A DNA stretch of 64,000 nt from Desulfuromonadales bacterium (GTDB taxonomy: Bacteria > Desulfobacterota > Desulfuromonadia > Desulfuromonadales > JAGXHI01). Every line of letters begins with the position of its first letter. Position 1 is the stretch's first letter. Positions 2,743-55,705 of the stretch are shown here, piece by piece. Location of the stretch: contig JAGXHI010000049.1 of the NCBI GenBank assembly GCA_024636295.1, forward strand, positions 2,573 to 66,572. The letters run 5' to 3'. The notes beneath the pieces are model-generated. The model saw nothing but the letters and a program-made list of their open reading frames with translations, searched no databases and was not told the origin of the DNA. Position numbers and translations under genes: made by a program.

Positions 2743-3756
2743 TCACTTCCCTCTGCGTAGCTGGTATTTCCGCACTGCGCGGTTATGCTCCTTGAGGGTG
2801 CGGGAAAAAACGTGGGTTCCGTCTCCCCGGGAGACGAAGTAGAGGAAGTCCGTTTCGGCGGGATCGGCTGCGGCCCTGAGGGCGTCCTCGCCCGGGTTGG
2901 CGATGGGTCCTGGCGGCAGTCCGCGAATGGCATAGGTGTTGTATGGGGTTTTTTCGGTGAGATGCGCCCGGGTCAGATTGCCGTCGAAATCCTCGATACC
3001 GTAAATGACCGTCGGGTCCGCCTGCAGAGGAATTCCTTTTCGCAGCCGGTTGTGGAAAACGGAGGCGATCAGGGGCATCTCTTCCCGGTTTCCCGCCTCT
3101 TTCTGAACGATGGAGGCCAAGGTCGTCAGTTGATGGAGATTCAACCCGCGGGCCTCGGCCTTCTGGAGGATGTCCGGGTTCACCCGTGACCGGAATTCCG
3201 CCACCATAGTCTTCAGCAGGCGTTCGGCATTCATTCCTGCGGTTAGCGCGTAGGTATCGGGGAAAAGATAGCCTTCCAGTGTCGGTGCATCAAATTCGAG
3301 GCTCCGGATGAAATCAGGGTCGCGGGCCTTTTCGAGGAACTGCTCGGCCGCCGCGAATTTCTCCTGCTCCAGTCGGGCGGCGATCTCCCGAAGCGTCCAA
3401 CCCTCCGGCAAAGTCAGCCGCTGGAGGATCACGTCTCCCTTGACCAGACGTCCCAGCACTTTTTCCGGGTCGGCCGGCTTTTCAAACGCATACTCCCCCG
3501 CCTGAATCCGGAGCATTTCATCGCGCCAGTGCGCAAGAACCTTGAACTTCAATGCACTGGCGATCACCCCTTCCTGCTGGAGACGATGGGCAACGGCGCC
3601 AAAGGATGTGCCGGGGACGATGGACAGATGCACGGTCCGAGGTGGTTCGACCGTGTTGCGGAGGAAATGATAGTAATCCAGACCCGCAATCAACGCCGTC
3701 AGAAAGCACGCCGGAAGAAATATTCGGAAAGCCAGTCGGGTTAAAGTCATAATCAC
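2743..3756 (-). CDS. mltG: endolytic murein transglycosylase MltG (YceG family)
   Basis: 337-aa ORF with an N-terminal TM segment and a YceG-like domain. The C-terminus ...LYFVSRGDGTHVFSRTLKEHNRAVRKY is typical of the family. Confidence 0.9.
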   Translation of the reverse strand: MIMTLTRLAFRIFLPACFLTALIAGLDYYHFLRNTVEPPRTVHLSIVPGTSFGAVAHRLQQEGVIASALKFKVLAHWRDEMLRIQAGEYAFEKPADPEKVLGRLVKGDVILQRLTLPEGWTLREIAARLEQEKFAAAEQFLEKARDPDFIRSLEFDAPTLEGYLFPDTYALTAGMNAERLLKTMVAEFRSRVNPDILQKAEARGLNLHQLTTLASIVQKEAGNREEMPLIASVFHNRLRKGIPLQADPTVIYGIEDFDGNLTRAHLTEKTPYNTYAIRGLPPGPIANPGEDALRAAADPAETDFLYFVSRGDGTHVFSRTLKEHNRAVRKYQLRRGK

Positions 3757-4455: not shown

Positions 4456-6075
4456 CTATCCCTTTCCTCCGTCCGCGGCCTTTACCGCGATGGCGAAATC
4501 GGGACAGATGTAAAGACATCGCAGACAACCGATGCAGCGCTCTGTATTGGCCGCAACCGCGGGCTTGTAACCGCCGGCATTGAAATCCTCCGATTGCTCG
4601 AAAACCCCGAGATGGCAGATTTCCCGACAATAACCGCAATCCTTGCAAATGGCCGCATTGACCGTCACCTCGAAATCGCGCAGATCGCAGGAGAGGCACC
4701 GCGACGCTTCGGCGATGGCCGCGTTTCTGCCATATACCCTTTCCACGGTCTCGAATGAGGTGCACCGTTTGCCGAGGGCGACCTTCCGGACATCCTTGCG
4801 GGCGGCGCCTCGCGGCGCTGTCTCCGGCGGCAGATCGACTTTTTCTTCGGCCGGGCTTTCCGGCAGTTCCCCCGAACCTCCCAGAAAACGATCGATCGAG
4901 GCGCAGGCCCGTCTTCCCTGAGCGATGGCCTCGATTATGTTCGACGATCCGGTAACCGCATCCCCCGCCGCGAAAATCCCCTTCCTGCAGGTGGCGAGGC
5001 TCTCTTCATCGACACGGATTTCCCCGTACTCCCGCCCTTCCAGGCTGACCGATGCGGCATCCGCGGCCTGTCCCGTGGCGACGATCACTGTGTCGCTCTT
5101 CAGGACGTATTCGCTTCCCTCTATGGGGACCGGTCTGCGCCGGCCACTTTCATCAGCGTTTCCAAGACGCATCCGGACGCAAGTGACTTCATCACCTTCG
5201 ATGATCACAGGGGCGGTCAGAAATTCGATCCGGACGCCCTCCTCAATAGCCTCCTCGATTTCCTCCTGGCTTGCCGGCATTTCCGAACGGCTCCTGCGAT
5301 ACAGCTGCACCACCTCCGCTCCCTGACGAATCGAAGCCCGGGCCGCATCCATGGCCGTGTTGCCCCCGCCAACCACAATGACCCTGTGCCCCAGAGCGGG
5401 TGGATTTCCTTCATTGACCTGTTTCAGAAAGGAGATCCCTTCCAGAACGTTCGGGGCGTCCTCTCCCGGGATGCCCATCTTCGAGGGTTTCCAGGCGCCG
5501 GTAGCCACCAGGACCGCATCGAAATCTTTTTCCAGAAGGGATTCCGCCGATGAAACCGGGGAGTCGGTTTTCATCTCCACTCCCCCGTCCATGATATACG
5601 TAATCTCCCGATCCAGAACCTCTTCAGGCAGGCGATAATCCGGAATGCTGTAGCGCAGCATGCCGCCAAGCCGGGGAAGCGCCTCGAAGAGCGTGACCGC
5701 GTGTCCCTGCAGGTTGAGATAATAAGCTGCTGTGAGGCCGCAGGGTCCGGACCCGATGACTGCGACCTTTCTGCCCGTCGACTGCCGTCTGGGAATTTCT
5801 ACCGCCTTTCGGCCGCCCTTTTCCGCAGCCGCTCTCTTGAGCCGCCGGATGGCGATGGCATCATCGAACAGAACCCTCGCGCATTTTGCTTCGCAGGGAT
5901 GGGCGCAGGCGTACCCGCAGACGAGGGAAAAGGGAATCCGCTCGTGAATGACGTCGAGGGCCCTTGCAAACCGTCCCTCCCGGATCAGTCGGACGTAACG
6001 GGGAACATCGACGCCCGCGGGACATCCCTTCCTGCATGGGGCGTCTGGTTTTCTGCTGCTCTTTATGACTGTCAT
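4456..6075 (-). CDS. GltD-like NAD(P)H-dependent oxidoreductase with C-terminal 2x[4Fe-4S] ferredoxin domain
   Basis: 539 aa. It has an N-terminal Cys-rich Fe-S region and the dinucleotide-binding motifs VAVIGSGPCGLTAAYYL and VIVVGGGNTAMDAA, as in glutamate synthase small-subunit family proteins. The C-terminal CKDCGYCREIC and CIGCLRCLYICP are ferredoxin motifs. Confidence 0.8.
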   Translation of the reverse strand: MTVIKSSRKPDAPCRKGCPAGVDVPRYVRLIREGRFARALDVIHERIPFSLVCGYACAHPCEAKCARVLFDDAIAIRRLKRAAAEKGGRKAVEIPRRQSTGRKVAVIGSGPCGLTAAYYLNLQGHAVTLFEALPRLGGMLRYSIPDYRLPEEVLDREITYIMDGGVEMKTDSPVSSAESLLEKDFDAVLVATGAWKPSKMGIPGEDAPNVLEGISFLKQVNEGNPPALGHRVIVVGGGNTAMDAARASIRQGAEVVQLYRRSRSEMPASQEEIEEAIEEGVRIEFLTAPVIIEGDEVTCVRMRLGNADESGRRRPVPIEGSEYVLKSDTVIVATGQAADAASVSLEGREYGEIRVDEESLATCRKGIFAAGDAVTGSSNIIEAIAQGRRACASIDRFLGGSGELPESPAEEKVDLPPETAPRGAARKDVRKVALGKRCTSFETVERVYGRNAAIAEASRCLSCDLRDFEVTVNAAICKDCGYCREICHLGVFEQSEDFNAGGYKPAVAANTERCIGCLRCLYICPDFAIAVKAADGGKG

Positions 6076-46638: not shown

Positions 46639-47517
46639 TCAGCTTTCGGTGGAGGAGAGCCGATAGGGACCATAGATGGAGCGCAGCACCACCTCCACTC
46701 TGGATCCCACCGGGGGCATGCGGTTCCAGTCGATGCGGTAGTAATTGACGGTGGTTTTGAGCGGCAGAACGTTGTCGGTGATGATTCCGCCGTTGCAGTC
46801 CGAGGGGCACAGGATGCAGCCGGAAGGAAAATTGATCGCCTCGGCCGTGCCGTGATAGACAAAATGGGGAGTATAAGGTTTTATCACTTCCTCCCCCTGC
46901 ACTTCGATCTTCTCCTCGATAAAATTCTCTATCGCGGCTTCCACGATCTTGCCCTCCTGTATGAAACGGATGGTGCAGATGATCGGATCGCCGTCCAGGT
47001 AATCTTCCCGGGTGGTGGTGGGCTTGAGGCCGGTTCGCTGCTCCACCTCGGACATGGGGATCTGCCGGCGGGAGGTCACCCCGATCTCCTGCAGGGCCTG
47101 GTCGATGTGATCGCGCCGGACATCGGTGGTGAAAACGAAATAACCCTCCATCTTTCCCCCCTTGGCGCCGAAAAACCCCTGGAAGCGGCGTCCCCAGTCC
47201 AGGATCGAAGGCTTGGACCCGTCCTTGGTGACCGTTGCGGAGATGCGCAGTTCCTTGTTGTCCTGATCGACCACCATCCGGTCGGTTGCCCCTTTTACGA
47301 TGCGCGCATTTTCCTGCTTTTCAGCGGCGGCAGAGGCTTTGGTCCCCGGAATGGTGCTGAGTCCCAGAATACCTAGCCCCAGGACCTTGAGAAACTCGCC
47401 CCGGCGAATTCCACTTTCGGATGTTTTGGTTGCCGTCTTCTCCTTCTGGCGAGCACCCACCAGCACGGAGTAGGGATCGGAACAGCAGGAGCAGCCTGTC
47501 GATTTTTCGTCTTTCAT
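46639..47517 (-). CDS. Tat-exported protein, YdjY-like (function unknown)
   Basis: The ATG at 47517 follows an AGGAG RBS. A twin-arginine motif GIRRGEFLKVLGLGILG is preceded by an unusually long N-region containing GCSCCSDP. The C-terminal part has HFVYHGTAEAINFPSGCILCPSDCNGG. The YdjY assignment is from memory of family naming and is not verified. Confidence 0.55.
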   Translation of the reverse strand: MKDEKSTGCSCCSDPYSVLVGARQKEKTATKTSESGIRRGEFLKVLGLGILGLSTIPGTKASAAAEKQENARIVKGATDRMVVDQDNKELRISATVTKDGSKPSILDWGRRFQGFFGAKGGKMEGYFVFTTDVRRDHIDQALQEIGVTSRRQIPMSEVEQRTGLKPTTTREDYLDGDPIICTIRFIQEGKIVEAAIENFIEEKIEVQGEEVIKPYTPHFVYHGTAEAINFPSGCILCPSDCNGGIITDNVLPLKTTVNYYRIDWNRMPPVGSRVEVVLRSIYGPYRLSSTES

Positions 47518-47675
47518 CTCAGTCTCCTTTAAAATCATCGGCGTTCTGTGGATTTGAAGTATCCCGATGGGACACAAAAGAATCGGTTTCTCAGCCTCAA
47601 CGGCCCTCCCGTCCACGGGGGGGACATAAATCGTTGCGGGAGATGTTCAGGGAGGGGTAAAGATGTTTTTTTCAG

Positions 47676-50192
47676 TCAATGGAATAGATGAGGCATCGCC
47701 AGCAGCCATAAGACCCGAAGGGCCAGCCCCGGAAGCATCAGCCAGATCATCCGGGTCGCGGACAGACGGAGCAGCCCGCCCAACAGGGGGGCAACCGGCA
47801 GCGGAAGCCAGGGCAGAGCCATTATCGCCGGCATCAGGAGGCCAACGGCCGTCGAGTTCACGGCCGGGGGCGCTTCCCCTTGGCCTTTGCGCAGCACAGG
47901 CAGGATATCCCCCAGCAGAAACCGACCCAGTGCAAAAGAGAGAATCCCCGCCTGGAACAGACTCAGGTAGCTGAAAACACCTCCCAGAAAAACCCCTTGG
48001 GCCGCGGCCTGCGCCGATACCAGAACCGGCTTGCTCAGGGGAAACCAGAAGCCCTGGAAAAGATGTCCGAGCAGCAGCAGAAACAGGGCCATTGGGCTGG
48101 CGCCCATGGGGCGGAAGTATTCGGTGAACATCTCCAGGTCGCCCGCCATCAGGTTGTTCAGAAGAAACATAAGGTGAAACTCGGCCGTATAGATGTAGGA
48201 GTTGATGGCCCAGAAATATTTATCCCCCAGATAGACCCCCAAACCCGCTGCGAAAAGAAGAGCCAGAAGAATCATGGATTTGAGCCGCAGGGATTTTCCA
48301 AGGCGGTACTGTCCGTGTGAACCTGCGCCTTCGTCCAATTCCTCCTCTCGGCTTGAAACCTGCCCTTCTTTCTCCCGGCGGGCCTGGTAGCGCCTGATGA
48401 GCAGGGGGAGAAGGGAAACCCCGATCACCAGCGCCAGCCCGACCAGGAATGTCGGTGAGATCCTTCCGCGGATTACGTCCAGCAGAGAGCTGGAAAAGGT
48501 GATGAAGGCGATGCAGCCCGGCAGCATGAAGAGGAAGGTCGCGAGTGCATAATGCGTGAATTTTATTCGGGTCAGTCCGAAGGCGTAATTGAGCAGGTTG
48601 AAAGGAAAAAGCGGGATCAGGCGCGTGAAGGCCACCATCTTCCAGCCGTGCTTCTCCACCTGCTCATCCAGGTGGCGCCAGCGGGGGCTTTTCAGTTTGT
48701 TCTCGATCCAGCCTCGTGCCAGGTAGCGGGAGACCAGAAAGGCGACACACGCCCCCAGGGTGGCCGAGATGATGGAGTAGACCACTCCCCAGAAGGGTCC
48801 GAAAAGAACGCCGGCGGCGATGGTCAGGGGCAGGCCGGGAAGAAAGAGCGCTGGCGCCACCGTGTAGATGGACATGTAAATGATCGGCGCCCAGACGCCA
48901 TACCCCTGGATGAGATCGCGCAGTCGCTCCTGCTCCAGGTATTCGGTCGCTCCGGAGGCCCGGACCGCGAGAATGAGAGCGATGATGAGCGCCAGGATCC
49001 CCAGTTTCTTCAGCAGCCCGGCCCTGGACTCTTCACCGGCGGTGAAGGTGCGCTCGCGGGTGGTCGCCGAGGGAAAGGTCTTGCGGAGGGTCTTCTTCAC
49101 CCTGAGGCGGTTGAGATAGGTAAAGGGGGCTTTGGCCACTTTCGCCTTGTCCACCATCGCGTCCTCCGGAGTCAGAACCAGGTCCAGGATGTGACTGGTT
49201 GGTCCATGGGCCCCGAGGAAGTGGGCGCAGCCCGTGCAATAGGTGACCGTCCGTTGACCTTCTGCCTCCTGCATCCGCTGCCGGGTCCAGCCTTTGGCCA
49301 GATCCGGTGAGACGCACCCCACCGCGCCGCCTTCGCCGCAGCAGAGGGTGGTCTTGCGGGAATGGGGAGGATCGACCGGGGTCAGACCTTTTCGGGACAG
49401 AAGGGAGCGCACCGAGTTCTGCACCGGTTCTGCAAAGCGCGCGACGCACGAATCGTGCACCGTCACCGTCCCGCCGACGGTGGGGGTCTTCGGAAGACCC
49501 TTTTCATCCAGCACTTCGTAGATCGTCCGGGTTTCCAGTTCCGGCGCATACTGACTGAAGACCTTGTAACAGTTGGGACAGGCGACGAGGACAGTCTTGA
49601 TACCGTTCGCGGCCAGATAATCCTTCATCTCACCGAACATCTCTTGAAAATACTGCTCCCGTCCCAAGTCGTGGGAAGGCTTGGTGCAGCAGTCAAGGAC
49701 GATTCCGATATTGGAGATGCTTCTCCGCAGGTGCGCGAAGGTTTTCAGCGTCTGTTCGGGCCGGGTTCCGGGCAACCCGCAGCCGGGGAAAAAGACGGTG
49801 TCGCACTCTTCAGGCAGAGCGTACCAGCTGTATCGCCGGGACGTCCCTCTTTTTTCGTAGGCGCGCACTCCGCTGTGTTCGGGATATTCCCCCTCCCCCC
49901 TCTCGAAGGTTTCCCGGCGCATCTCCAGAAACATCTGCATCGGATCGAGGTCCACCGGGCAGACCGCTGTGCAGAGGCCGCAGAGGCTGCATTCGAAGGG
50001 AAGCCCCAGCGAATGCTTGTCTCCGGGATCATACCCGTCGGCGATACTTTTCGGATCGCCGTTGTTTTTCAAAAACCGACATTCCGCCACGCAGCGTCCA
50101 CACTGGATGCACCGGCTGGAGTTGAGTTTCAGTTCCTCCCCTAAGGAGGTTCGCAGCGACTGGGAAGAGACGTTTCTTTGGAGTGCGGTCAT
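47676..50192 (-). CDS. fusion protein: HdrD/GlpC-like Fe-S + CCG-domain oxidoreductase fused to TVP38/TMEM64 (DedA-superfamily) membrane domains
   Basis: The N-terminus has CIQCGRCVAEC and CSLCGLCTAVCP 4Fe-4S motifs, then two Cys-rich CCG-type regions (FFPGCGLPG.., VHDSCVARF..CCGEGG). The middle carries a TVP38-type signature (FLPGLPLTIAAGVLFGPFWGVVYS...FTRLIPLFPFNLLNYAFGLT). The C-terminal roughly 230 aa is a further polytopic region. The ATG at 50192 is preferred; the ORF-track TTG at 50363 would overlap the MerB-like C-terminus. Confidence 0.75.
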   Translation of the reverse strand: MTALQRNVSSQSLRTSLGEELKLNSSRCIQCGRCVAECRFLKNNGDPKSIADGYDPGDKHSLGLPFECSLCGLCTAVCPVDLDPMQMFLEMRRETFERGEGEYPEHSGVRAYEKRGTSRRYSWYALPEECDTVFFPGCGLPGTRPEQTLKTFAHLRRSISNIGIVLDCCTKPSHDLGREQYFQEMFGEMKDYLAANGIKTVLVACPNCYKVFSQYAPELETRTIYEVLDEKGLPKTPTVGGTVTVHDSCVARFAEPVQNSVRSLLSRKGLTPVDPPHSRKTTLCCGEGGAVGCVSPDLAKGWTRQRMQEAEGQRTVTYCTGCAHFLGAHGPTSHILDLVLTPEDAMVDKAKVAKAPFTYLNRLRVKKTLRKTFPSATTRERTFTAGEESRAGLLKKLGILALIIALILAVRASGATEYLEQERLRDLIQGYGVWAPIIYMSIYTVAPALFLPGLPLTIAAGVLFGPFWGVVYSIISATLGACVAFLVSRYLARGWIENKLKSPRWRHLDEQVEKHGWKMVAFTRLIPLFPFNLLNYAFGLTRIKFTHYALATFLFMLPGCIAFITFSSSLLDVIRGRISPTFLVGLALVIGVSLLPLLIRRYQARREKEGQVSSREEELDEGAGSHGQYRLGKSLRLKSMILLALLFAAGLGVYLGDKYFWAINSYIYTAEFHLMFLLNNLMAGDLEMFTEYFRPMGASPMALFLLLLGHLFQGFWFPLSKPVLVSAQAAAQGVFLGGVFSYLSLFQAGILSFALGRFLLGDILPVLRKGQGEAPPAVNSTAVGLLMPAIMALPWLPLPVAPLLGGLLRLSATRMIWLMLPGLALRVLWLLAMPHLFH

Positions 50193-50221: not shown

Positions 50222-50860
50222 TCAGGGGCTGAAAAGAATGCGGGCCGCCTCCAGAGCCTCCAGGGCGTCCAGACAGATGACATGCTCGTCCCCCAGGCTC
50301 ATTCGGGCCTGGTAATCTTTCAGGTGCTCCTTCGTACAGAAGAAGTTCATGACATTTCAGCAACTGCCCGACCAGTCGTCAGACTCGCGCAAATCGACAT
50401 GCAGAACGTGGGCTTCAGAGGGCTGCAGATCCTCGATCCCGCCGTCCCTGATCGCCACACGGACAGGCCCCTGACACTGGCTGCACCGAGAGGTGATATC
50501 TACATCCTGCCCGAAAGTAAAGGCAGCCCCCATGGCGTCGATGGAGCACATCGCGTGAAAGGAGCGCCCATCATGCAAGCTGACCCGATGGGGCGTGGGC
50601 AGAGCGGAGACCGGGTAAACAAACAGGACCATATCCTCATTTTTCACCACGACCCGTTTGCGGACCAGCCTTTGAAGAACCCCCTCGCGACAGGGTTCCT
50701 CAAAATCCGGAAGACAGCGGATATCCGCTTCGTCCAGTGGTTTTCCCAGAGTGATGATCCGGTTCATCAGGGCTTGCCGCAAACGTTTTTCCTGCGGGTC
50801 CAGGCCTGAAAAAATATTGAGGAATCGTCCCCGCCCTGACGCTTTGCATTGGGATGACAT
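50222..50860 (-). CDS. alkylmercury-lyase (MerB) family protein, candidate selenoprotein (in-frame UGA at 50357-50359)
   Basis: The 167-aa ORF (..HAMCSIDAMG..SGSC) stops at a TGA. The same frame continues NVMNFFCTKEHLKDYQ...ILFSP to a TGA at 50222-50224. The combined length is 212 codons, the size of canonical MerB. The UGA aligns with the second Cys of the MerB SFCCHVHFF motif. Confidence 0.6.
50327..50345 (-). other. SECIS-like hairpin 11 nt downstream of the in-frame UGA
   Basis: The minus-strand RNA reads UGA-AAUGUCAUGAA-CUUCUUC-UGUAC-GAAGGAG. This is a 7-bp stem (one G-U pair) with a 5-nt loop carrying G at position 2. The stem starts 11 nt after the UGA and the loop 18 nt after it, which is within the geometry described for bacterial SECIS elements. 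Confidence 0.45.
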
Positions 50861-51017
50861 GTTATTTCCATATTTTGAGAAGAGAAAGAAATCGGGATAA
50901 GATAGATTTTAGCTGATTTTTTTTCAAATAGAAAATATCGATAGTTCAGATAAGAAGCATCAGGTTGGTTGATGCAGTAAGTTGCATGCGACCAAAAGAC
51001 GGATCGGCGCTGAAAGT

Positions 51018-51147: not shown

Positions 51148-53559
51148 CTAGCAGCGGCAGTGTTCCGTGCGGTCGATGACATCTTCCTGCAATGGCCTGC
51201 TCAGCCCGGTGAAGAAGGCGCTGTATCCCGCCACCCGCACTAACAGGTCCGAGTATTTTTCCGCGTGAGCCTGGGCTTCACGCAGGACTTCTGAGTCAAC
51301 GACATTGAATTGAACATGCCAGACCCCTGCTTCCAGAGCGCCTTTGACATAAGAGACGAAGTTTTTCAGCCCGGTTTCCCCTGCCACTGCGGCAGGCATC
51401 AGTTTTATGTTTAAGATGGATCCTCCCGTCATTCCTTCGTGATCCAGCTTCCCCACCGACAGTGCAGCCGCCGTCGGTCCCTCTTTCCCCACATAATGGC
51501 AGGGAGAGCACCCGTCAGCCAGGGACTGCCAGGCTTGTCTGCCGTTTGGCAGAGCGCTGATTACCGTGCCGTAGGGAATGTTGGCTGAAACCGAGCTGAA
51601 GCCCGGATGGAAGCGCTCTCCGAACAGGCTTCTGTGCCTGTTCGTTTCCGCGACGTAAATGTCCACCACTTTTTGCGCGATGTCATCCGCGCGCGGGTCG
51701 TCATTGCCGTAGTGCGGCGCTTTTGCCTTCAGCATCTGCCGGACATGCTCATTCCCCTTGAAATCGGCATCCAGTGCGTCCATGAGTCCGTTCATGGTGA
51801 GAATGCCATCTTCAAAGACCAGTTTCCTGATGGCGGTCAGGGAGTCCACCACGTCGGCCAGGCCGACCGCCCGGGGAGAGAAGCCGAAATTATAGACGGC
51901 GCCGCCGGCGCTCCGGTCCAATCCCCTGTCGATGCAGTCCTGGACGAAGCAGGAGACGAACGGGGTCGGAACCCTATCCCGGTGGATTTTCTCCAGCTTG
52001 ACGCTCGCCCGGCTGTAAACGCCGATAAGGTAGCCGAGTTGCCTTCCGAAGGCTTCCACCACTTCCTCAAAGGATGTGAACTCGCGGGGATTGCCGGTTT
52101 TTATCCCCATCTGCCGGTTGCCCAGCGGCCACCAGCCATCGTGAAGGGCAAAGTCCAGGGCGGCCGCGAAATTGATGTAGCCGCCGTTCTGCGATCCCTT
52201 GTCTTTTCTGGTGGGCTGCACGCTGGCGCAACCCACGCTGGAGTAATCGCGTGCATCCTCCAGGGCAATCCCTTTGCCGACGAGTCCCGGCACAACCCGG
52301 CGGTCGTTGAAAAAAGAGGGATGGCCCGTGCCGAGGCGGGCCAGTTCACAGGTCTTTTCCACCAGGGCGTCGGGCGAGCCCTCCCAGAAGCGCACCGACA
52401 GACTCGGCTGATGGAGCCGGGTGTTTATTGAAGACTGAATGCACATGTAGGTCAGGTCGTTGGTGGCATCCTTGCCGTCAGGCGTCTGCCCCCCCACGCA
52501 GATCTGCTGCTGGGACGGAAATCCCGAAGCGATATGGGAGTAATATTCCGAATTGATGTAATTCGTCTCCGGAAATTTCAGGAAAAAACAGTCCAGCAAC
52601 TCCTGGGCCCGTTCTTCGGAGATACGCCCCCCCTGCAGGTCGGCCTGAAGATAGGGATAGGCATATTGATCAAGACGGCCTACGGAGTAACAGCGCTGGA
52701 ACGCCTCCTGCTGAATGCCCACGAAAAGGAACCAGGTCGCCTGAATCGCTTCCTGAAAGGTCCTCGGCGGCAAACCCGGCACCTGGTCACAGGCCGCCGC
52801 AATCGTCAGGAGCTCTGCCCGGCGATCCGCATCGGTTTCCTCTTTGGCCATCTGCCGCGCCAGCTCCGCATATCGCTTTCCGAAATCGGTGATCGCATCG
52901 CAGCTGATGATGGCCGCCCGCAGAAAATCGATCGCATTTTTGTCGTTATCCTGCCGGGCGCGCCCCAGCCTTTTCTCGGCCCGGGCTTTTATCCCCTGGA
53001 AGCCGATTTCGAGAACCGTCTGATAGTCGGGAGTGATGTGCCCGGCCGGTCCATAGAGCGGCACATCCAGGCTGAAGATATTGGTGCCCTTGACGATGTT
53101 GTTTTCCGGATCCATCAGGAAGAGTTTCTTTTCTTCGGCATCCATATCTGGAAACAGGATCTGGCGAAGCGAGCTGTCGTGCCAGTGGGGCAGGATTTCT
53201 TCAAGTTCCATAAGGTCCGCGTCGCTGAATTCGAACCGGTCGAAGGCCCGGGTGGTCAGCTTGCGATATTCGTCCAGCAGGTCGTCCCCCACGCTTTCGG
53301 GGTAAATCGGAAAGGCGCGCGGCCGGCTGCCCATGGACCCCGCGATGAGCTGACCATCTTCGATGTAGATGGTGCGTTCCCGCAGAAGCTTTGCAAAGGC
53401 CAGAGCACGCCCCACGATCAGCGGCTCGTCCCGCACCTCTTCGGATTGGAAGTAAAGGTGGTGATAGATCCGGGCTCTTTCGATGCAGACATTGGGTTTG
53501 TACGTCAGAAAACGCGTCTTCAACTCCTCGACCCTCGCGGTCGGACCGAATCCCGGCAT
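51148..53559 (-). CDS. glycyl radical enzyme (PFL2 / glycerol-dehydratase-like family), substrate unknown
   Basis: 803 aa with the C-terminal glycyl radical motif LLVRVAGYSAFF (Gly778) and a Cys loop SSVGCASVQP (Cys444). The N-terminus ARVEELKTRFLTYKPNVCIERARIY is typical of the PFL2 class. The RBS is AGGAG. Confidence 0.9.
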   Translation of the reverse strand: MPGFGPTARVEELKTRFLTYKPNVCIERARIYHHLYFQSEEVRDEPLIVGRALAFAKLLRERTIYIEDGQLIAGSMGSRPRAFPIYPESVGDDLLDEYRKLTTRAFDRFEFSDADLMELEEILPHWHDSSLRQILFPDMDAEEKKLFLMDPENNIVKGTNIFSLDVPLYGPAGHITPDYQTVLEIGFQGIKARAEKRLGRARQDNDKNAIDFLRAAIISCDAITDFGKRYAELARQMAKEETDADRRAELLTIAAACDQVPGLPPRTFQEAIQATWFLFVGIQQEAFQRCYSVGRLDQYAYPYLQADLQGGRISEERAQELLDCFFLKFPETNYINSEYYSHIASGFPSQQQICVGGQTPDGKDATNDLTYMCIQSSINTRLHQPSLSVRFWEGSPDALVEKTCELARLGTGHPSFFNDRRVVPGLVGKGIALEDARDYSSVGCASVQPTRKDKGSQNGGYINFAAALDFALHDGWWPLGNRQMGIKTGNPREFTSFEEVVEAFGRQLGYLIGVYSRASVKLEKIHRDRVPTPFVSCFVQDCIDRGLDRSAGGAVYNFGFSPRAVGLADVVDSLTAIRKLVFEDGILTMNGLMDALDADFKGNEHVRQMLKAKAPHYGNDDPRADDIAQKVVDIYVAETNRHRSLFGERFHPGFSSVSANIPYGTVISALPNGRQAWQSLADGCSPCHYVGKEGPTAAALSVGKLDHEGMTGGSILNIKLMPAAVAGETGLKNFVSYVKGALEAGVWHVQFNVVDSEVLREAQAHAEKYSDLLVRVAGYSAFFTGLSRPLQEDVIDRTEHCRC

Positions 53560-53617
53560 TATCTTTCTCCTATTCAGATGATTTCGTTGCAGGACGGGAG
53601 CATGATCGCCCCCTCTT

Positions 53618-54685
53618 CTACCAGGACATTATCGTGCAGTTCAACCCCATGTCCGTCAGGGTCTTTTTCAGGGGCTCCACCTTCTCGGGCATCAAACCTG
53701 CCCTCCCTTTGAGCAGATAGGGTCTGCCCAGTTGCTCATATTTTTGCTCGCACAGATTATGAAAGGGCATCAGCTCCACTGTGGAGGTGTTGTGCAATTC
53801 TGAACGGATGAATGTTCCGATCGCCGCCATGTTTTCCGTATCGGCATTCACCTCCGGTATGACCGGCACCCGGACGATCAGATGAAGAGGACGATCGGTC
53901 CCTCTCGAGACAAGCATCTCGTCAAGAGCCCTCAGGTTGTCCAGGATTGTTTCATTGTCAACGCCGGTGATCCGACGATGTTCGTGCCTGTCCACGATCT
54001 TTAAATCGTAAAATATCGTGTCGCAATATTCTGCTATCCTCTCCAGCCAGGGCCAATCGCCGTATCCCGAAGTTTCAATGGCCGTGTTCAGACCAAGTTC
54101 CCTGCACTTGCGGAGCACTTCGCAGGCAAAAGCCGGCTGAAAAAGAACTTCGCCGCCGCCGATGGTCACTCCGCCTCCGGAATGTCGATAAAAAAGAGAG
54201 TCGCGTTTGACGATGTCGACGATTTCATCTGCGTCCCGGGTTTCGCCCCATTCCGACTTTGCACCGCTGGGACAGGCTCTCACGCACGCTCCGCACGCAC
54301 GGCAGGAGGCCTTCGAAATCGTGAAACCGGTTGCGGGCTCTTGGGAGACGGCGCCCTCGGGACAGCTGTCGATGCAGGCGCCGCAGCCGATGCATCCGTT
54401 CTTGTCGTAACGTATCTCTGTGGCGCCGCTTTGTCCTTCCGGGTTCGCACACCACAGGCAGCGCAACGGACACCCCTTCAGAAAGACAAGGGTTCTGATT
54501 CCCGCGCCGTCGTGAAGAGAAAACCTCTGAATATTGAAGACGACCCCTTCGGCGCCGGGCGCCATGGCTCGCCTGCTCCCGCTGAAAAGAGGTTTCTCCC
54601 TTGCCGTCAACCCGCTGCAGTCTTCAATTTGAACGTCGGACTTGCCCATGATTGCGCTTCTTTTCTGGTGATTGACTCTGGGCAT
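53618..54685 (-). CDS. glycyl-radical enzyme activating enzyme (radical SAM, with two auxiliary ferredoxin-like clusters)
   Basis: It has the CPLRCLWCANP radical-SAM CX3CX2C motif after GIRTLVFLKG, plus CIGCGACIDSCP and CRACGACVRACP. The ATG at 54685 follows a GAGGG RBS. The ORF-track start 54787 would abut the lysR gene. Confidence 0.9.
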   Translation of the reverse strand: MPRVNHQKRSAIMGKSDVQIEDCSGLTAREKPLFSGSRRAMAPGAEGVVFNIQRFSLHDGAGIRTLVFLKGCPLRCLWCANPEGQSGATEIRYDKNGCIGCGACIDSCPEGAVSQEPATGFTISKASCRACGACVRACPSGAKSEWGETRDADEIVDIVKRDSLFYRHSGGGVTIGGGEVLFQPAFACEVLRKCRELGLNTAIETSGYGDWPWLERIAEYCDTIFYDLKIVDRHEHRRITGVDNETILDNLRALDEMLVSRGTDRPLHLIVRVPVIPEVNADTENMAAIGTFIRSELHNTSTVELMPFHNLCEQKYEQLGRPYLLKGRAGLMPEKVEPLKKTLTDMGLNCTIMSW

Positions 54686-54704
54686 GTTGCCCTCGCATTT
54701 TTCC

Positions 54705-54732
54705 AGTATAGAGGCGCTACGATACATGTAAA
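54705..54732 (-). promoter_or_regulatory. candidate sigma-70 promoter of the activase-GRE operon
   Basis: The minus strand reads TTTACA-N16-TATACT, ending about 20 nt upstream of the activase ATG at 54685. Confidence 0.45.
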
Positions 54733-54802: not shown

Positions 54803-55705
54803 ATGGACTTACGACAATTGCGCTACTTCGTTGCGGTCGCCGAGGAACTGCATTTCGGCCGCGCCGCCAGGCGGCTGGCCATCTCCCAGCCGCCGCTCAG
54901 CTACAACATCCAGCAGCTGGAGAATTCCCTCGGCGCCAGGCTGCTGGAGAGAAGCAACAAGGCGGTCTCCCTCACTGCGGCGGGGGAAACCCTGTATGGA
55001 GAGGCGAAGAAGATCCTGAGCCAGGTGCGGGACGCGGAATACCTGACCACGCAGGCAGCCAGGGGGATGATCGGGCGTTTGCGCATCGGCTTCTCCGCCT
55101 CCAGCCTGTTCCGCGGCCTGCCTGAAGCGATCGAAAAATTTCAGGAACGGGCCCCCGAGGCGGACATCGTTCTGCACGAATTGAATTCGGCCGAACAGCT
55201 CGAGGCCCTGCAAAGAAGAGATATCGATCTGGGACTGGTCCATGGGGAGCATGTCCCCAGAGGGTTGAAAGCCGCAACCCTGATGAAGGAGCCTTTTCTG
55301 TGCTGCCTCCCCTCTTCTCACCGACTGACCGGAAAGCGATCCATCCGGCTCAAAGATCTGATCGGTGAGAGCATCGTTCTTTTTTCCCGCCCCTCCTCGC
55401 CCCATTACTACGATAAAATCATTGCCATGTTCGTGAACGCGGGATTCAGTCCCCGGATCCGGCACGAAGTGCGTCATTTCCTCACCATGGTCAGCCTGGC
55501 GGAGAAAAAAATGAGTATTGCCATCGTGCCACGTTCAATGGCTCACGTCACGTTGAAGCACGTCACATTCCGTGCCATTGCGGATGCCGAAGAAACCACC
55601 GAAACCCGGTGCATCTGGCGGGAGGACGACAATTCCATGCTTCTGGGGGAGTTTGTCTCTTCCGTCCAGGAGTTCGCCCGCCGCATCGAAAGCGGGGCCG
55701 ATTAG
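54803..55705 (+). CDS. LysR-family transcriptional regulator
   Basis: 300 aa. MDLRQLRYFVAVAEELHFGRAARRLAISQPPLSYNIQQLE is the canonical LTTR HTH. It is divergent from the GRE activase. Confidence 0.9.
   Translation: MDLRQLRYFVAVAEELHFGRAARRLAISQPPLSYNIQQLENSLGARLLERSNKAVSLTAAGETLYGEAKKILSQVRDAEYLTTQAARGMIGRLRIGFSASSLFRGLPEAIEKFQERAPEADIVLHELNSAEQLEALQRRDIDLGLVHGEHVPRGLKAATLMKEPFLCCLPSSHRLTGKRSIRLKDLIGESIVLFSRPSSPHYYDKIIAMFVNAGFSPRIRHEVRHFLTMVSLAEKKMSIAIVPRSMAHVTLKHVTFRAIADAEETTETRCIWREDDNSMLLGEFVSSVQEFARRIESGAD

Follow-up and report, generated by a model that had tools for sequence, protein, structure and literature searches.

The minus-strand gene at 50222-50860 of the window (the whole 64,000-nucleotide stretch of Desulfuromonadales DNA analysed here) is an intact saoL, encoding a MerB-fold "selenocysteine-assisted organometallic lyase". 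Its reading as a selenoprotein gene is well supported, since the product matches the SaoL model and, across an in-frame UGA, the Pfam MerB family, TGA is found at this position in 80 of 80 relatives, the codons of a downstream RNA stem are frozen, and the structural model of a homologue has the MerB fold. Taken as a whole, the locus is very probably best explained by a saoL decoded with selenocysteine (Sec), whose product would carry out a MerB-like lyase chemistry, and which heads a three-gene unit situated outside any SAO operon. The features discussed below are collected in Table 1.

Table 1. Features of the saoL locus (positions are those of the window).
Feature	Position	Strand	Description
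saoL	50222..50860	-	Complete 212-codon gene: 167 codons, UGA/Sec, 44 codons, TGA stop; predicted MerB-like organometallic lyase selenoprotein
In-frame UGA, predicted Sec (U168)	50357..50359	-	Cys167 directly before (CU dipeptide); column of MerB catalytic Cys159
Post-UGA tail, 44 codons (NVMNFFCTK...ILFSP)	50225..50356	-	C-terminal portion of the MerB fold
Codons Cys105-Ser-Ile-Asp108	50537..50548	-	Equivalent to MerB Cys96 and Asp99
SECIS-like hairpin	50327..50345	-	Stem CUUCUUC 50345-50339, loop UGUAC 50338-50334, stem GAAGGAG 50333-50327; 11 nt past the UGA
Fe-S/CCG-DedA fusion, 838 aa	47676..50192	-	29 nt downstream of saoL; Pfam Fer4_17, CCG, VTT_dom
YdjY-domain protein	46639..47538	-	NCBIfam ydjY_domain, 84.3 bits for a cutoff of 50
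Terminator-like hairpin, then sigma-70-like promoter match	50899..50975	-	Hairpin 50975-50957; TTGAAA-17-TATCTT 50927-50899; consensus matches only

Gene anatomy and family assignment

The minus-strand ORF 50357-50860 codes for 167 amino acids, has the C-terminus ...DDWSGSC and closes on the TGA at 50357-50359. Past this codon, the same frame reads NVMNFFCTKEHLKDYQARMSLGDEHVICLDALEALEAARILFSP before a TGA stop at 50222-50224. An earlier note on this DNA, made from the sequence alone, had given the ORF, the TGA and the 44-codon open frame exactly to the base, and had counted, correctly, 212 residues for the joined product (167+1+44); the R831b MerB chain 1s6l_A also has 212. Public gene calls end at the Cys (P0001 and nearly all homologues, about 167 aa), and one homologue entry, P0022, is mistranslated, with a Trp at the Sec column.

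On the SaoL model of NCBIfam (NF040728), the protein scored 167.2 bits for a cutoff of 140, its residues 15-167 covering profile positions 2-159 of 159. The match to Pfam MerB (PF03243), a check that the earlier note had proposed, spans the UGA in the 212-aa product (residues 85-210, 99.5 bits, E = 1.8e-28), as do the alignments to MerB structures of the PDB. Cutoffs of the MerB equivalog models were missed (57.5 bits against 193 for NF009710, 53.8 against 200 for NF033555), so that only the broad PF03243 was reached. Identity to the 80 best relatives ranged from 34 to 55%, the top match being at 55%. The window gene resembles published SaoL in the following traits: the family HMM is passed, the CU dipeptide (C167-U168) lies 44 residues short of the C-terminus, for about 45 in the family, the tail past the UGA is conserved and has its homologue in the C-terminus of MerB, database calls stop short at the Cys, the genome is of anaerobe type, and the SECIS hairpin is the one found in C. 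difficile-type loci.

Whether a Sec-containing MerB-like family had already been catalogued was left open in the earlier note. It had: this is SaoL (NF040728), named by Haft & Gwadz (2023, J Bacteriol 205:e0025922; preprint 10.1101/2022.07.06.499078), and a MerB-like Sec family was tabulated before that name, in a review of June 2022. The main text of Zhang & Gladyshev (2008) does not mention MerB. A Cys-Sec MerB homologue is not new, and because the family is already published, the present one adds a member to it and leaves the field unchanged.

MerB fold and active site

HMMER alignment against MerB and MerB2, anchored on the FF pair, placed U168 on MerB Cys159, C167 on Phe158 and N169 on Cys160. 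The register proposed in the earlier note was right for HAMCSID against YAWCALD, which pairs C105 and D108 with Cys96 and Asp99, and off by one at the UGA, which it had put on Cys160. C105 and D108 are invariant in our alignments (A1 and A4). Two residues of the MerB trio Cys96/Asp99/Cys159 are thus matched identically, and the Cys159 column holds Sec168, a conservative but non-identical replacement.

A structure model was made with AF2 from the full-length homologue P0022 rather than from the window protein. It has a pLDDT of 88.8 and displays a complete MerB fold; over its tail, mean pLDDT by blocks of 10 residues goes from about 65 to 90, the lowest values being those of the block with the CU site and of the extreme C-terminus. 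When this model was compared to the PDB with Foldseek, 11 out of 11 significant matches were MerB or MerB2, with TM scores of 0.51-0.71 (0.66-0.71 for the ten crystal-structure chains), and 189-213 of its 213 columns were aligned.

Compared to MerB (EC 4.99.1.2; R831b, PDB 1S6L/3F0P) and MerB2 (5C17), SaoL therefore shares the fold over nearly the full length. It has the same length as MerB, keeps the Cys96 and Asp99 equivalents, and has a second metal ligand at the equal position. It differs from MerB in that this second ligand is Sec instead of Cys159, in an extra Cys at the position of Phe158, in an overall identity of only about 19% (Foldseek, P0022 model), and in its context, which is not that of a mer operon: no merR, merT, merP or merA scored above cutoff among the roughly 50 of 54 window ORFs scanned with NCBIfam and Pfam. 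Since no biochemical characterisation of any SaoL was found in the literature consulted, lyase activity and substrate are predictions from this homology to MerB.

Conservation of the UGA and of the downstream hairpin

All of the 80 loci from GTDB-representative relatives have TGA at the Sec column, each followed by a conserved in-frame tail, and 78 of them have a Cys codon directly before it. These loci come from Bacillota, Actinobacteria, Desulfuromonadales, Desulfobulbaceae, a Cetobacterium plasmid and other lineages. Four of four further metagenomic SaoL loci also have TGA and an in-frame tail. Across the 80 loci, the tail is as conserved as the body of the protein, and none of the orthologues terminates at this column, two points on which the earlier note had staked its interpretation. 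In the published family, 98% of the members are Sec forms (Haft & Gwadz 2023, J Bacteriol 205:e0025922).

Of the 54 window ORFs, 32 end normally in TGA, more than in any other stop, so that decoding of this UGA would be a site-specific recoding rather than the result of an altered genetic code. Within the 64-kb window, a tRNA search gave no tRNA, tRNA-Sec included, and profile scans of the ORFs revealed no selA, selB or selD; the Sec decoding capacity of the organism is therefore an assumption. A scan of the window for in-frame TGA in other genes yielded no usable selenoprotein candidates, as spurious long frames dominate in DNA of 56% GC.

We then turn to the hairpin. Bacterial SECIS elements reportedly have a spacing of about 11 nt between the UGA and the minimal upper stem, an apical loop located 16-37 nt from the UGA, and a G in the first two loop positions. 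The window hairpin, CUUCUUC-UGUAC-GAAGGAG, fits this description, with a loop that begins 18 nt past the UGA and a G at loop position 2; its 7-bp stem, 11-nt spacing and loop G are exactly as the earlier note gave them. Folded from the window alone (68 nt), the segment reaches -12.6 kcal/mol, with z = -0.58, and 51 of 200 shuffled sequences were equally stable. On its own the hairpin is thus within chance, and it is solely the comparison with relatives that makes it significant.

This comparison was made on the window and 79 relatives, one locus (L037) being too short. At least 6 of the 7 stem pairs were found in 79 of the 80 sequences scored, 63 in the register of the window (itself included) and the other 16 with the stem displaced by 4 nt, an alternative register found in Lachnospiraceae; in one relative (L033), a stem change is compensated. 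Codon choice within the stem was nearly uniform: Thr+8 is ACG in 46 of 46 cases (5.6 expected), Phe+6 is TTC in 76 of 77 (25.3 expected) and Lys+9 is AAG in 49 of 51 (20.2 expected). Asn codons beyond the stem, taken as controls, were near background usage (38/78 for 27.6 expected, and 30/76 for 27.0 expected). These comparative data indicate that the hairpin is under RNA-level constraint, its structure being kept across the family beyond what the protein sequence requires, and they answer positively the question of hairpin conservation raised in the earlier note. Rfam SECIS families gave no match over the window at gathering thresholds, and a permissive search of 50270-50400 returned no SECIS, its only match being a chance snoRNA (E = 1.7). 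SECIS servers likewise failed on the SaoL genes of Haft & Gwadz (2023, J Bacteriol 205:e0025922).

Two readings would do without Sec. The TGA might be a true stop, leaving a truncated MerB-like protein of 167 aa and a 44-codon remnant, through pseudogenisation or loss of the Sec machinery. This would agree with the public gene calls, which stop here in P0001 as in nearly all homologues, and with the lack of visible sel genes within the window. We nevertheless consider it very improbable: 80 of 80 loci share the TGA and have behind it a tail as conserved as the body, the MerB fold includes this tail as an integral part, the truncated protein would miss its second metal-binding ligand, and the SECIS stem, unbroken in the window, is constrained at synonymous sites family-wide. 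Even less credence is given to an ordinary Cys-Cys MerB homologue whose TGC or TGT was turned into TGA by an error of sequencing or assembly. A single substitution would suffice for it, and Cys forms are known in the wider family, in Jonquetella (Haft & Gwadz 2023, J Bacteriol 205:e0025922) and in a Cys-packed homologue among our loci (L087); yet TGA is found in independent assemblies of all 84 relatives, and a SECIS hairpin would serve no purpose in a Cys form.

Neighbouring genes, the SAO system and proposed function

Upstream of saoL, the terminator-like and promoter-like sites sit in a gap of 287 nt that separates it from a glycyl-radical enzyme gene. These matches suggest a separate transcription unit made up of saoL, the Fe-S/DedA gene and the ydjY-domain gene. 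The glycyl-radical enzyme and its activase (51148-54727) were rejected as members of the system, being absent from other SaoL loci and set apart by the same sites.

In the 838-aa fusion, Cys positions reveal a pair of CxxCxxCxxxC ferredoxin motifs and a pair of CCG-type motifs, an HdrD-like set, and a hydropathy scan places some 9-10 TM helices after them; these include a VTT/DedA domain and an unannotated C-terminal membrane region of about 210 aa. CCG domains are typical of disulfide reductases such as HdrD and HdrB. The fusion resembles HdrD/GlpC/LldF-type Fe-S and CCG (disulfide) reductases in this succession of two 4Fe-4S motifs and two CCG-type Cys motifs. Its match to NCBIfam NF045663, "diclust_near_Sec", is partial (profile positions 282-670, 237.7 bits for a cutoff of 530), and it differs from that family by the lack of the N-terminal pyridine-nucleotide-disulfide oxidoreductase part and by the fused DedA/VTT polytopic membrane domain. 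Fe-S/DedA orthologues adjoin saoL in 8 loci.

For the YdjY-domain protein, the database call (P0042) takes a start 7 codons further on, at 47517. Two blocks of this protein are invariant, a CxCC tail at the N-terminus and GCxxCPSDCNGG; it also has a hydrophobic segment, signal or anchor, and is 64-78% identical to orthologues adjoining saoL. We speak of a signal or anchor segment because Tat export was not retained: RRGEFLK is present, but of its two Arg only the second is invariant, and the motif departs from canonical spacing. An AF2 model of this protein was of moderate confidence (pLDDT 65), no PDB structure resembled it at E <= 1e-3, and the papers found to mention YdjY give no function for it. 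A VTT/DedA membrane protein gene beside a YdjY-domain gene is also the arrangement of ydjX-ydjY-ydjZ in E. coli K-12, where the DedA-family YdjX and YdjZ flank YdjY, in a cluster not known to include MerB/SaoL, an HdrD-like Fe-S/CCG protein or a selenoprotein.

In its original description, SaoL marks an operon of nine genes, SAO (Haft & Gwadz 2023, J Bacteriol 205:e0025922). Two of the SAO families count as "optional", SaoL and SaoD. The window saoL lies outside any SAO operon within 64 kb: tblastn with eight C. difficile Sao proteins, whose labels were verified with NCBIfam, detected none of the ABC transporter SaoA/P/B/X, the efflux protein SaoE, SaoC, SaoT and SaoD in the window, and no Sao model was matched in NCBIfam scans of its ORFs. 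The same eight queries found at least 4 Sao families in the loci of 59 of the 80 relatives, including Actinobacteria and deltaproteobacteria. Instead of these neighbours, saoL has here the HdrD-like/DedA fusion and the YdjY-domain protein, an association seen in the window and in about a dozen other loci. The trio recurs in Desulfuromonadales, Desulfobulbaceae and other anaerobe MAGs, its genes being arranged in three different orders. Among 9 YdjY-anchored loci, the Fe-S/DedA-YdjY core is accompanied by SaoL in 4, by the DsrE-like SaoD, with which SaoL alternates, in 3, by a Cys-form (Cys-packed) MerB homologue in 1, and by neither in 1. Beside this core, related loci also have genes for rhodanese, DsrE/SaoD, TusA, DsrC and C_GCAxxG_C_C (seleno)proteins, and once SelB. 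Most trio-context SaoLs group together in an NJ tree, but not cleanly, and we do not claim that they form a clade.

One tentative reading, to which we would not yet commit ourselves, is that SaoL belongs here to a second SAO-related system, undescribed as far as our search goes and widespread in Desulfuromonadales, Desulfobacterales, Desulfobulbaceae and Nitrospirota. Its core, devoid of the SAO ABC transporter, might consist of the HdrD-like Fe-S/CCG-DedA/VTT fusion, a membrane protein of about 220 aa that has no annotation and is part of the fusion in the window, and the YdjY-domain protein with invariant CxCC and CxxCxxxC. Such a system may be an anaerobic analogue of the mer type, dependent on Fe-S clusters and selenium, that binds, transports, cleaves and reduces organometal(loid) or sulfur/selenium species.

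As for the chemistry, translation would insert Sec at the UGA, the downstream hairpin with its GU-containing apical loop acting as a bacterial SECIS that recruits SelB with Sec-tRNA(Sec). The product would be a 212-aa cytosolic enzyme with the active site Cys105/Asp108/Sec168 and Cys167 beside the Sec. By analogy with MerB, thiolate and selenolate may bind a soft metal or metalloid bearing a carbon ligand, whereupon Asp108 would protonate the carbon and the C-metal(loid) bond would be broken. The vicinal Cys167 could assist in releasing the bound atom or passing it on, or could enter into a reducible Se-S bond. With their predicted locations, the Fe-S/DedA protein in the membrane, its HdrD-like domain on the cytoplasmic side, and the Cys-rich YdjY-domain protein exported or membrane-anchored, the two partners may replace the ABC transporter and thioredoxin-like parts of SAO in transport, binding and reduction.

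A genuine selenoprotein might also act here without cleaving any C-metal bond, in the trafficking of sulfur or selenium (persulfide, perselenide, selenide) or as a metal(loid) chaperone, with a C-U carrier site reduced by the HdrD-like domain. The sulfur-related genes repeatedly found beside the core, the alternation of SaoL with SaoD and the disulfide reductase character of CCG domains all go in this direction. We find it unlikely, because the MerB catalytic trio, with Sec in the place of Cys159, is retained down to its proton-donor Asp, which a carrier does not obviously require, and because PDB fold matches of the P0022 model are solely to organomercurial lyases. Sec-dependent, MerB-like lyase chemistry is thus the reading that we prefer.

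For the family, the frozen hairpin UUCUUC-UGUAC-GAAGAA provides a simple and specific marker for fixing truncated SaoL gene calls. The association of SaoL with the trio links two unexplained systems, SAO and YdjY/DedA, and narrows the minimal set of SaoL partners to an Fe-S domain of reductase type, a membrane domain and an exported protein rich in Cys; a unit of three genes is also simpler than the nine-gene SAO operon for finding the SaoL substrate. In anaerobes, a candidate role for SaoL would be to cleave methylmercury or other organometal(loid)s independently of oxygen.

Predicted recoding of saoL and its relation to MerB

The earlier note had proposed a Cys-Sec homologue of MerB encoded by an ORF that continues in frame past a UGA to a 212-residue product, with a 7-bp stem 11 nt after the UGA. 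The ORF, the UGA, the continuation and the product length match the sequence and its translation exactly, and the stem is present, with G at loop position 2. Since TGA ends more of the window's ordinary ORFs than any other stop codon does (32 of the 54 selected), the UGA in saoL is, on sequence grounds, a case of site-specific recoding and not of a reassigned genetic code. The core idea of the note was right, and not new. The same family was described and named SaoL by Haft & Gwadz (bioRxiv 2022; J Bacteriol 2023), who reported Sec in 44 of 45 cases and SaoL as a marker of the nine-gene "Selenocysteine-Assisted Organometallic" (SAO) operon; a June-2022 review tabulated an "alkylmercury lyase MerB-like" selenoprotein, and a 2026 review includes NF040728, the NCBIfam SaoL model, with a CU motif.

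In a search with Cys in place of U, the Pfam MerB profile matches residues 85-210 of the product, spanning the UGA (E = 1.8e-28), in agreement with the family assignment of the note. The product passes NF040728 ("MerB-like organometallic lyase SaoL"; 167.2 bits, cutoff 140) and is far below the NCBIfam cutoffs of the true-MerB equivalogs. HMMER against PDB sequences gave E = 2.7e-13 for MerB2 (5C17) and about 5e-5 for R831b MerB. In these alignments C105 and D108 correspond to MerB Cys96 and Asp99, as previously proposed; the register placing C-U on Cys159-Cys160 was off by one, since anchoring on the FF pair aligns U168 with catalytic Cys159, also the sole Cys of MerB2, C167 with Phe158, and N169 with Cys160. 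By this alignment, the predicted Sec takes the place of the essential MerB Cys (Cys159).

Standing in for the window protein, P0022, a full-length database homologue, was modelled with its own homologues. The P0022 model (mean pLDDT 88.8, pTM 0.86) has regular helices and strands after the UGA position, where mean pLDDT per 10-residue block lies between about 65 and 90, the minima falling at the very C-terminal end and in the block that includes CU. Foldseek against the PDB returned 11 significant matches, all to MerB or MerB2 (E 1.9e-12 to 4e-8) and none besides; TM was 0.66-0.71 over 189-213 aligned columns for ten crystal-structure chains, and 0.51-0.56 for the NMR model. According to the model, a product stopped at residue 167 would have an incomplete fold and no second metal ligand.

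Features of the window, with positions and strands
Feature	Position	Strand	Remarks
saoL frame	ATG at 50860	minus	167 codons ending ...LRESDDWSGSC
In-frame TGA	50357-50359	minus	directly after the Cys codon (codon 167)
Post-TGA tail	TGA stop at 50222-50224	minus	44 codons, same frame, NVMNFFCTKEHLKDYQARMSLGDEHVICLDALEALEAARILFSP
Hairpin	50345-50327	minus	CUUCUUC-UGUAC-GAAGGAG
Fe-S/CCG-VTT/DedA fusion	47676-50192	minus	838 aa, 29 nt downstream of saoL
YdjY-domain protein	46639-47538	minus	next after the fusion gene
NF045663-matching protein	4456-6075	minus	profile positions 18-202
Glycyl-radical enzyme and activase	51148-54727	minus	enzyme of 803 aa
LysR regulator	54803-55705	plus	divergent
157-aa ORF	55762-56235	minus	
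Four consecutive ORFs	56604-61086	minus	242, 382, 404, 449 aa

Conservation of the UGA, the tail and the hairpin

Among 40 database homologues besides the window's own call, 39 end early, near the aligned Cys. P0022, which originates in a Logan assembly, is the sole full-length entry of a SaoL homologue (213 aa; compare L036, Clostridium collagenovorans). At the UGA column it carries W, evidently since TGA was translated as Trp when the gene was called; the Trp is a silent annotation error in a public protein set. A GTDB scan with one genome per species gave 581 stretches encoding a relative. In the best 80 of these loci, tblastn reads through the UGA column into the tail: TGA stands at the Sec column in 80/80, TGC or TGT directly precedes it in 78, and an in-frame tail starting N-x-M-N-F-F-C/W is conserved in all (42-63 codons in the loci whose contig includes the end of the tail). 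Four more metagenomic loci likewise have TGA and the conserved tail. Two uncultured deltaproteobacterial MAGs (L030, L032) have W-A-C-G-A/T-U instead of W-x-G-x-C-U; the Cys is moved two residues upstream, and the codons before Sec, GCC and ACT, do not encode Cys.

By itself, the window hairpin is not exceptional (68-nt region, -12.6 kcal/mol, z = -0.58 vs shuffles). No Rfam model matches it, and SECIS servers failed on saoL genes (Haft & Gwadz). The form UUCUUC-UGUAC-GAAGAA is kept nearly identical even in Clostridia of 28-32% GC. With expectations computed from the codon usage of each locus itself, Phe+5 is TTC in 64/76 (expected 24.5), Phe+6 TTC in 76/77 (25.3), Thr+8 ACG in 46/46 (5.6) and Lys+9 AAG in 49/51 (20.2), whereas control Asn codons outside the stem are near background (+1, 38/78, expected 27.6; +4, 30/76, expected 27.0). 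TTC-TTC is found in 33 of the 38 loci below 40% GC, for 1.6 expected. Stem codons being frozen and flanking Asn codons not, codon comparison shows RNA-level constraint on the predicted hairpin. The hairpin of the earlier note is indeed conserved in orthologues: at least 6 of 7 pairs form, in one of two registers, in 79 of 80 scored sequences, a set made up of the window and 79 relatives (L037 was too short), with only L070 failing. Actinobacterial L033 has a compensated stem change (CGCCUUC...GAAGGCG). Sixteen Lachnospiraceae-type sequences encode other residues (C-S-G/S-A-E-F), yet fold into a hairpin of 7 bp that is displaced by 4 nt in the 3' direction (UUCUGCA-GNNN-UGCAGAA) and whose loop opens with G; because the residues differ along with the hairpin, the protein seems to have evolved together with the RNA. 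This shifted hairpin, with FFCSGAEF, takes the place of the SaoL SECIS at the Lachnospiraceae- and Oscillospiraceae-type SAO loci L049, L051, L053, L058, L060, L062, L063, L065, L072, L073 and L075-L080.

Gene neighbourhoods of saoL and YdjY

The C. difficile order SaoD-T-E-C-X-B-P-A-L was confirmed with NCBIfam in L050, whose eight non-SaoL Sao proteins served as tblastn queries against the window and the 80 loci. At least four Sao families lie beside saoL in 59/80 loci. No convincing SAO gene was found by this search in the entire 64-kb window or at L001, L002, L003, L018, L021, L022, L030, L032, L043 and L057, a few of these having a single weak ABC-transporter subunit match only. In contrast to the published operon, window saoL is followed by a fusion gene and then by a YdjY-domain gene. 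The fusion protein carries an HdrD-like set of motifs, two CxxCxxCxxxC and two of CCG type; about 9-10 TM helices follow, part of them in a VTT/DedA domain. Orthologues of these two genes, 43-78% identical, are beside saoL at L001, L002, L003, L018, L021, L022, L032 and L043, and that of YdjY alone on the short contig L006. Judged from gene content, this trio recurs across loci, co-oriented in three different orders. The nearest relatives, those of the Desulfuromonadales MAG L001 (SaoL 55%, Fe-S/DedA 67%, YdjY 78% identity), suggest that the window may come from a Desulfuromonadales-like anaerobe.

In the YdjY family, protein clusters number over 240 (60-78% identity), and the family was sampled here through nine independent loci (L081-L089). 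Their core is the Fe-S/CCG/VTT protein, a ~220-aa membrane protein (fused to it in the window) and YdjY. SaoL with TGA and hairpin adjoins it in four (L082, L084, L085, L086), and a SaoD-type 110-aa protein in three (L081, L088, L089; SaoD equivalog 172.8, cutoff 169, passed; 60% identity with the SaoD of C. difficile). At L087 the SaoL slot is taken by a MerB homologue that is packed with Cys and has no Sec (...NTCACCADSLC..., 2781-3449), and L083 has neither SaoL nor SaoD. Rhodanese, TusA/DsrE, DsrC and C_GCAxxG_C_C (seleno)protein genes are found near these cores, and SelB once, directly adjoining the SaoD, Fe-S/DedA and YdjY module (L088, 837-2729); L085 (2000-7994) has three extra rhodanese genes and a C_GCAxxG_C_C family member. 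YdjY proteins (alignment A2) have an invariant GCxxCPSDCNGG and an invariant CxCC, the latter in a ~35-aa tail N-terminal to a hydrophobic signal/anchor segment, an odd location for conserved Cys if the segment is cleaved. The AF2 model of YdjY has no PDB neighbour.

Upstream of window saoL, the glycyl-radical enzyme and activase genes are conserved beside no other saoL examined, and between them and saoL lie a promoter-like site and one that resembles a terminator. On TIGR01774 the enzyme reaches 688 bits, a little over the cutoff of 678, and it is below all substrate-specific equivalogs (sulfopropanediol, hydroxyproline and choline enzymes). NCBIfam NF045663 ("diclust_near_Sec") is split over two window proteins 42 kb apart, its pyridine-nucleotide oxidoreductase part matching the protein at 4456-6075 and its dicluster/CCG part (positions 282-670) the fusion. 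For the 157-aa ORF, the best match covers only the first ~100 positions of ~490-residue succinyl/acetyl-CoA transferase profiles; truncation or a frameshift has probably left only this fragment of a gene. The four consecutive ORFs have no NCBIfam and almost no Pfam match (HEAT repeats in one only); the last starts MKEIDRRQFLKVSGVALGGVILSGC, a sequence that resembles a lipoprotein signal of the twin-arginine type. No sel gene or tRNA-Sec was found within the 64-kb window.

Proposed mechanism and alternatives

Bacterial Sec decoding and MerB catalysis are established, and the mechanism proposed here rests on them. SelB with Sec-tRNA(Sec) would decode the saoL UGA, aided by the hairpin. By analogy with MerB, a soft metal(loid) would be bound by Cys105 and Sec168, and the leaving carbon protonated by Asp108. 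Cys167 may help in hand-off or form a reducible Se-S bond, reduction might come from the HdrD-like domain of the fusion, and the DedA domain and YdjY could provide transport and binding, replacing the SAO ABC transporter.

The comparative data, with TGA and tail retained in every saoL locus analysed, effectively exclude a true stop or a pseudogene, which we consider very improbable, and a sequencing error, less probable still in our estimate. A role of SaoL in sulfur/selenium trafficking is kept alive by the sulfur-transfer genes neighbouring related loci; we regard it as unlikely. That window saoL is a real selenoprotein gene, an additional member of the known SaoL family, is well supported. 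The parts worth following are its non-SAO context, with YdjY, DedA and HdrD-like partners, and the alternation of SaoL with SaoD.
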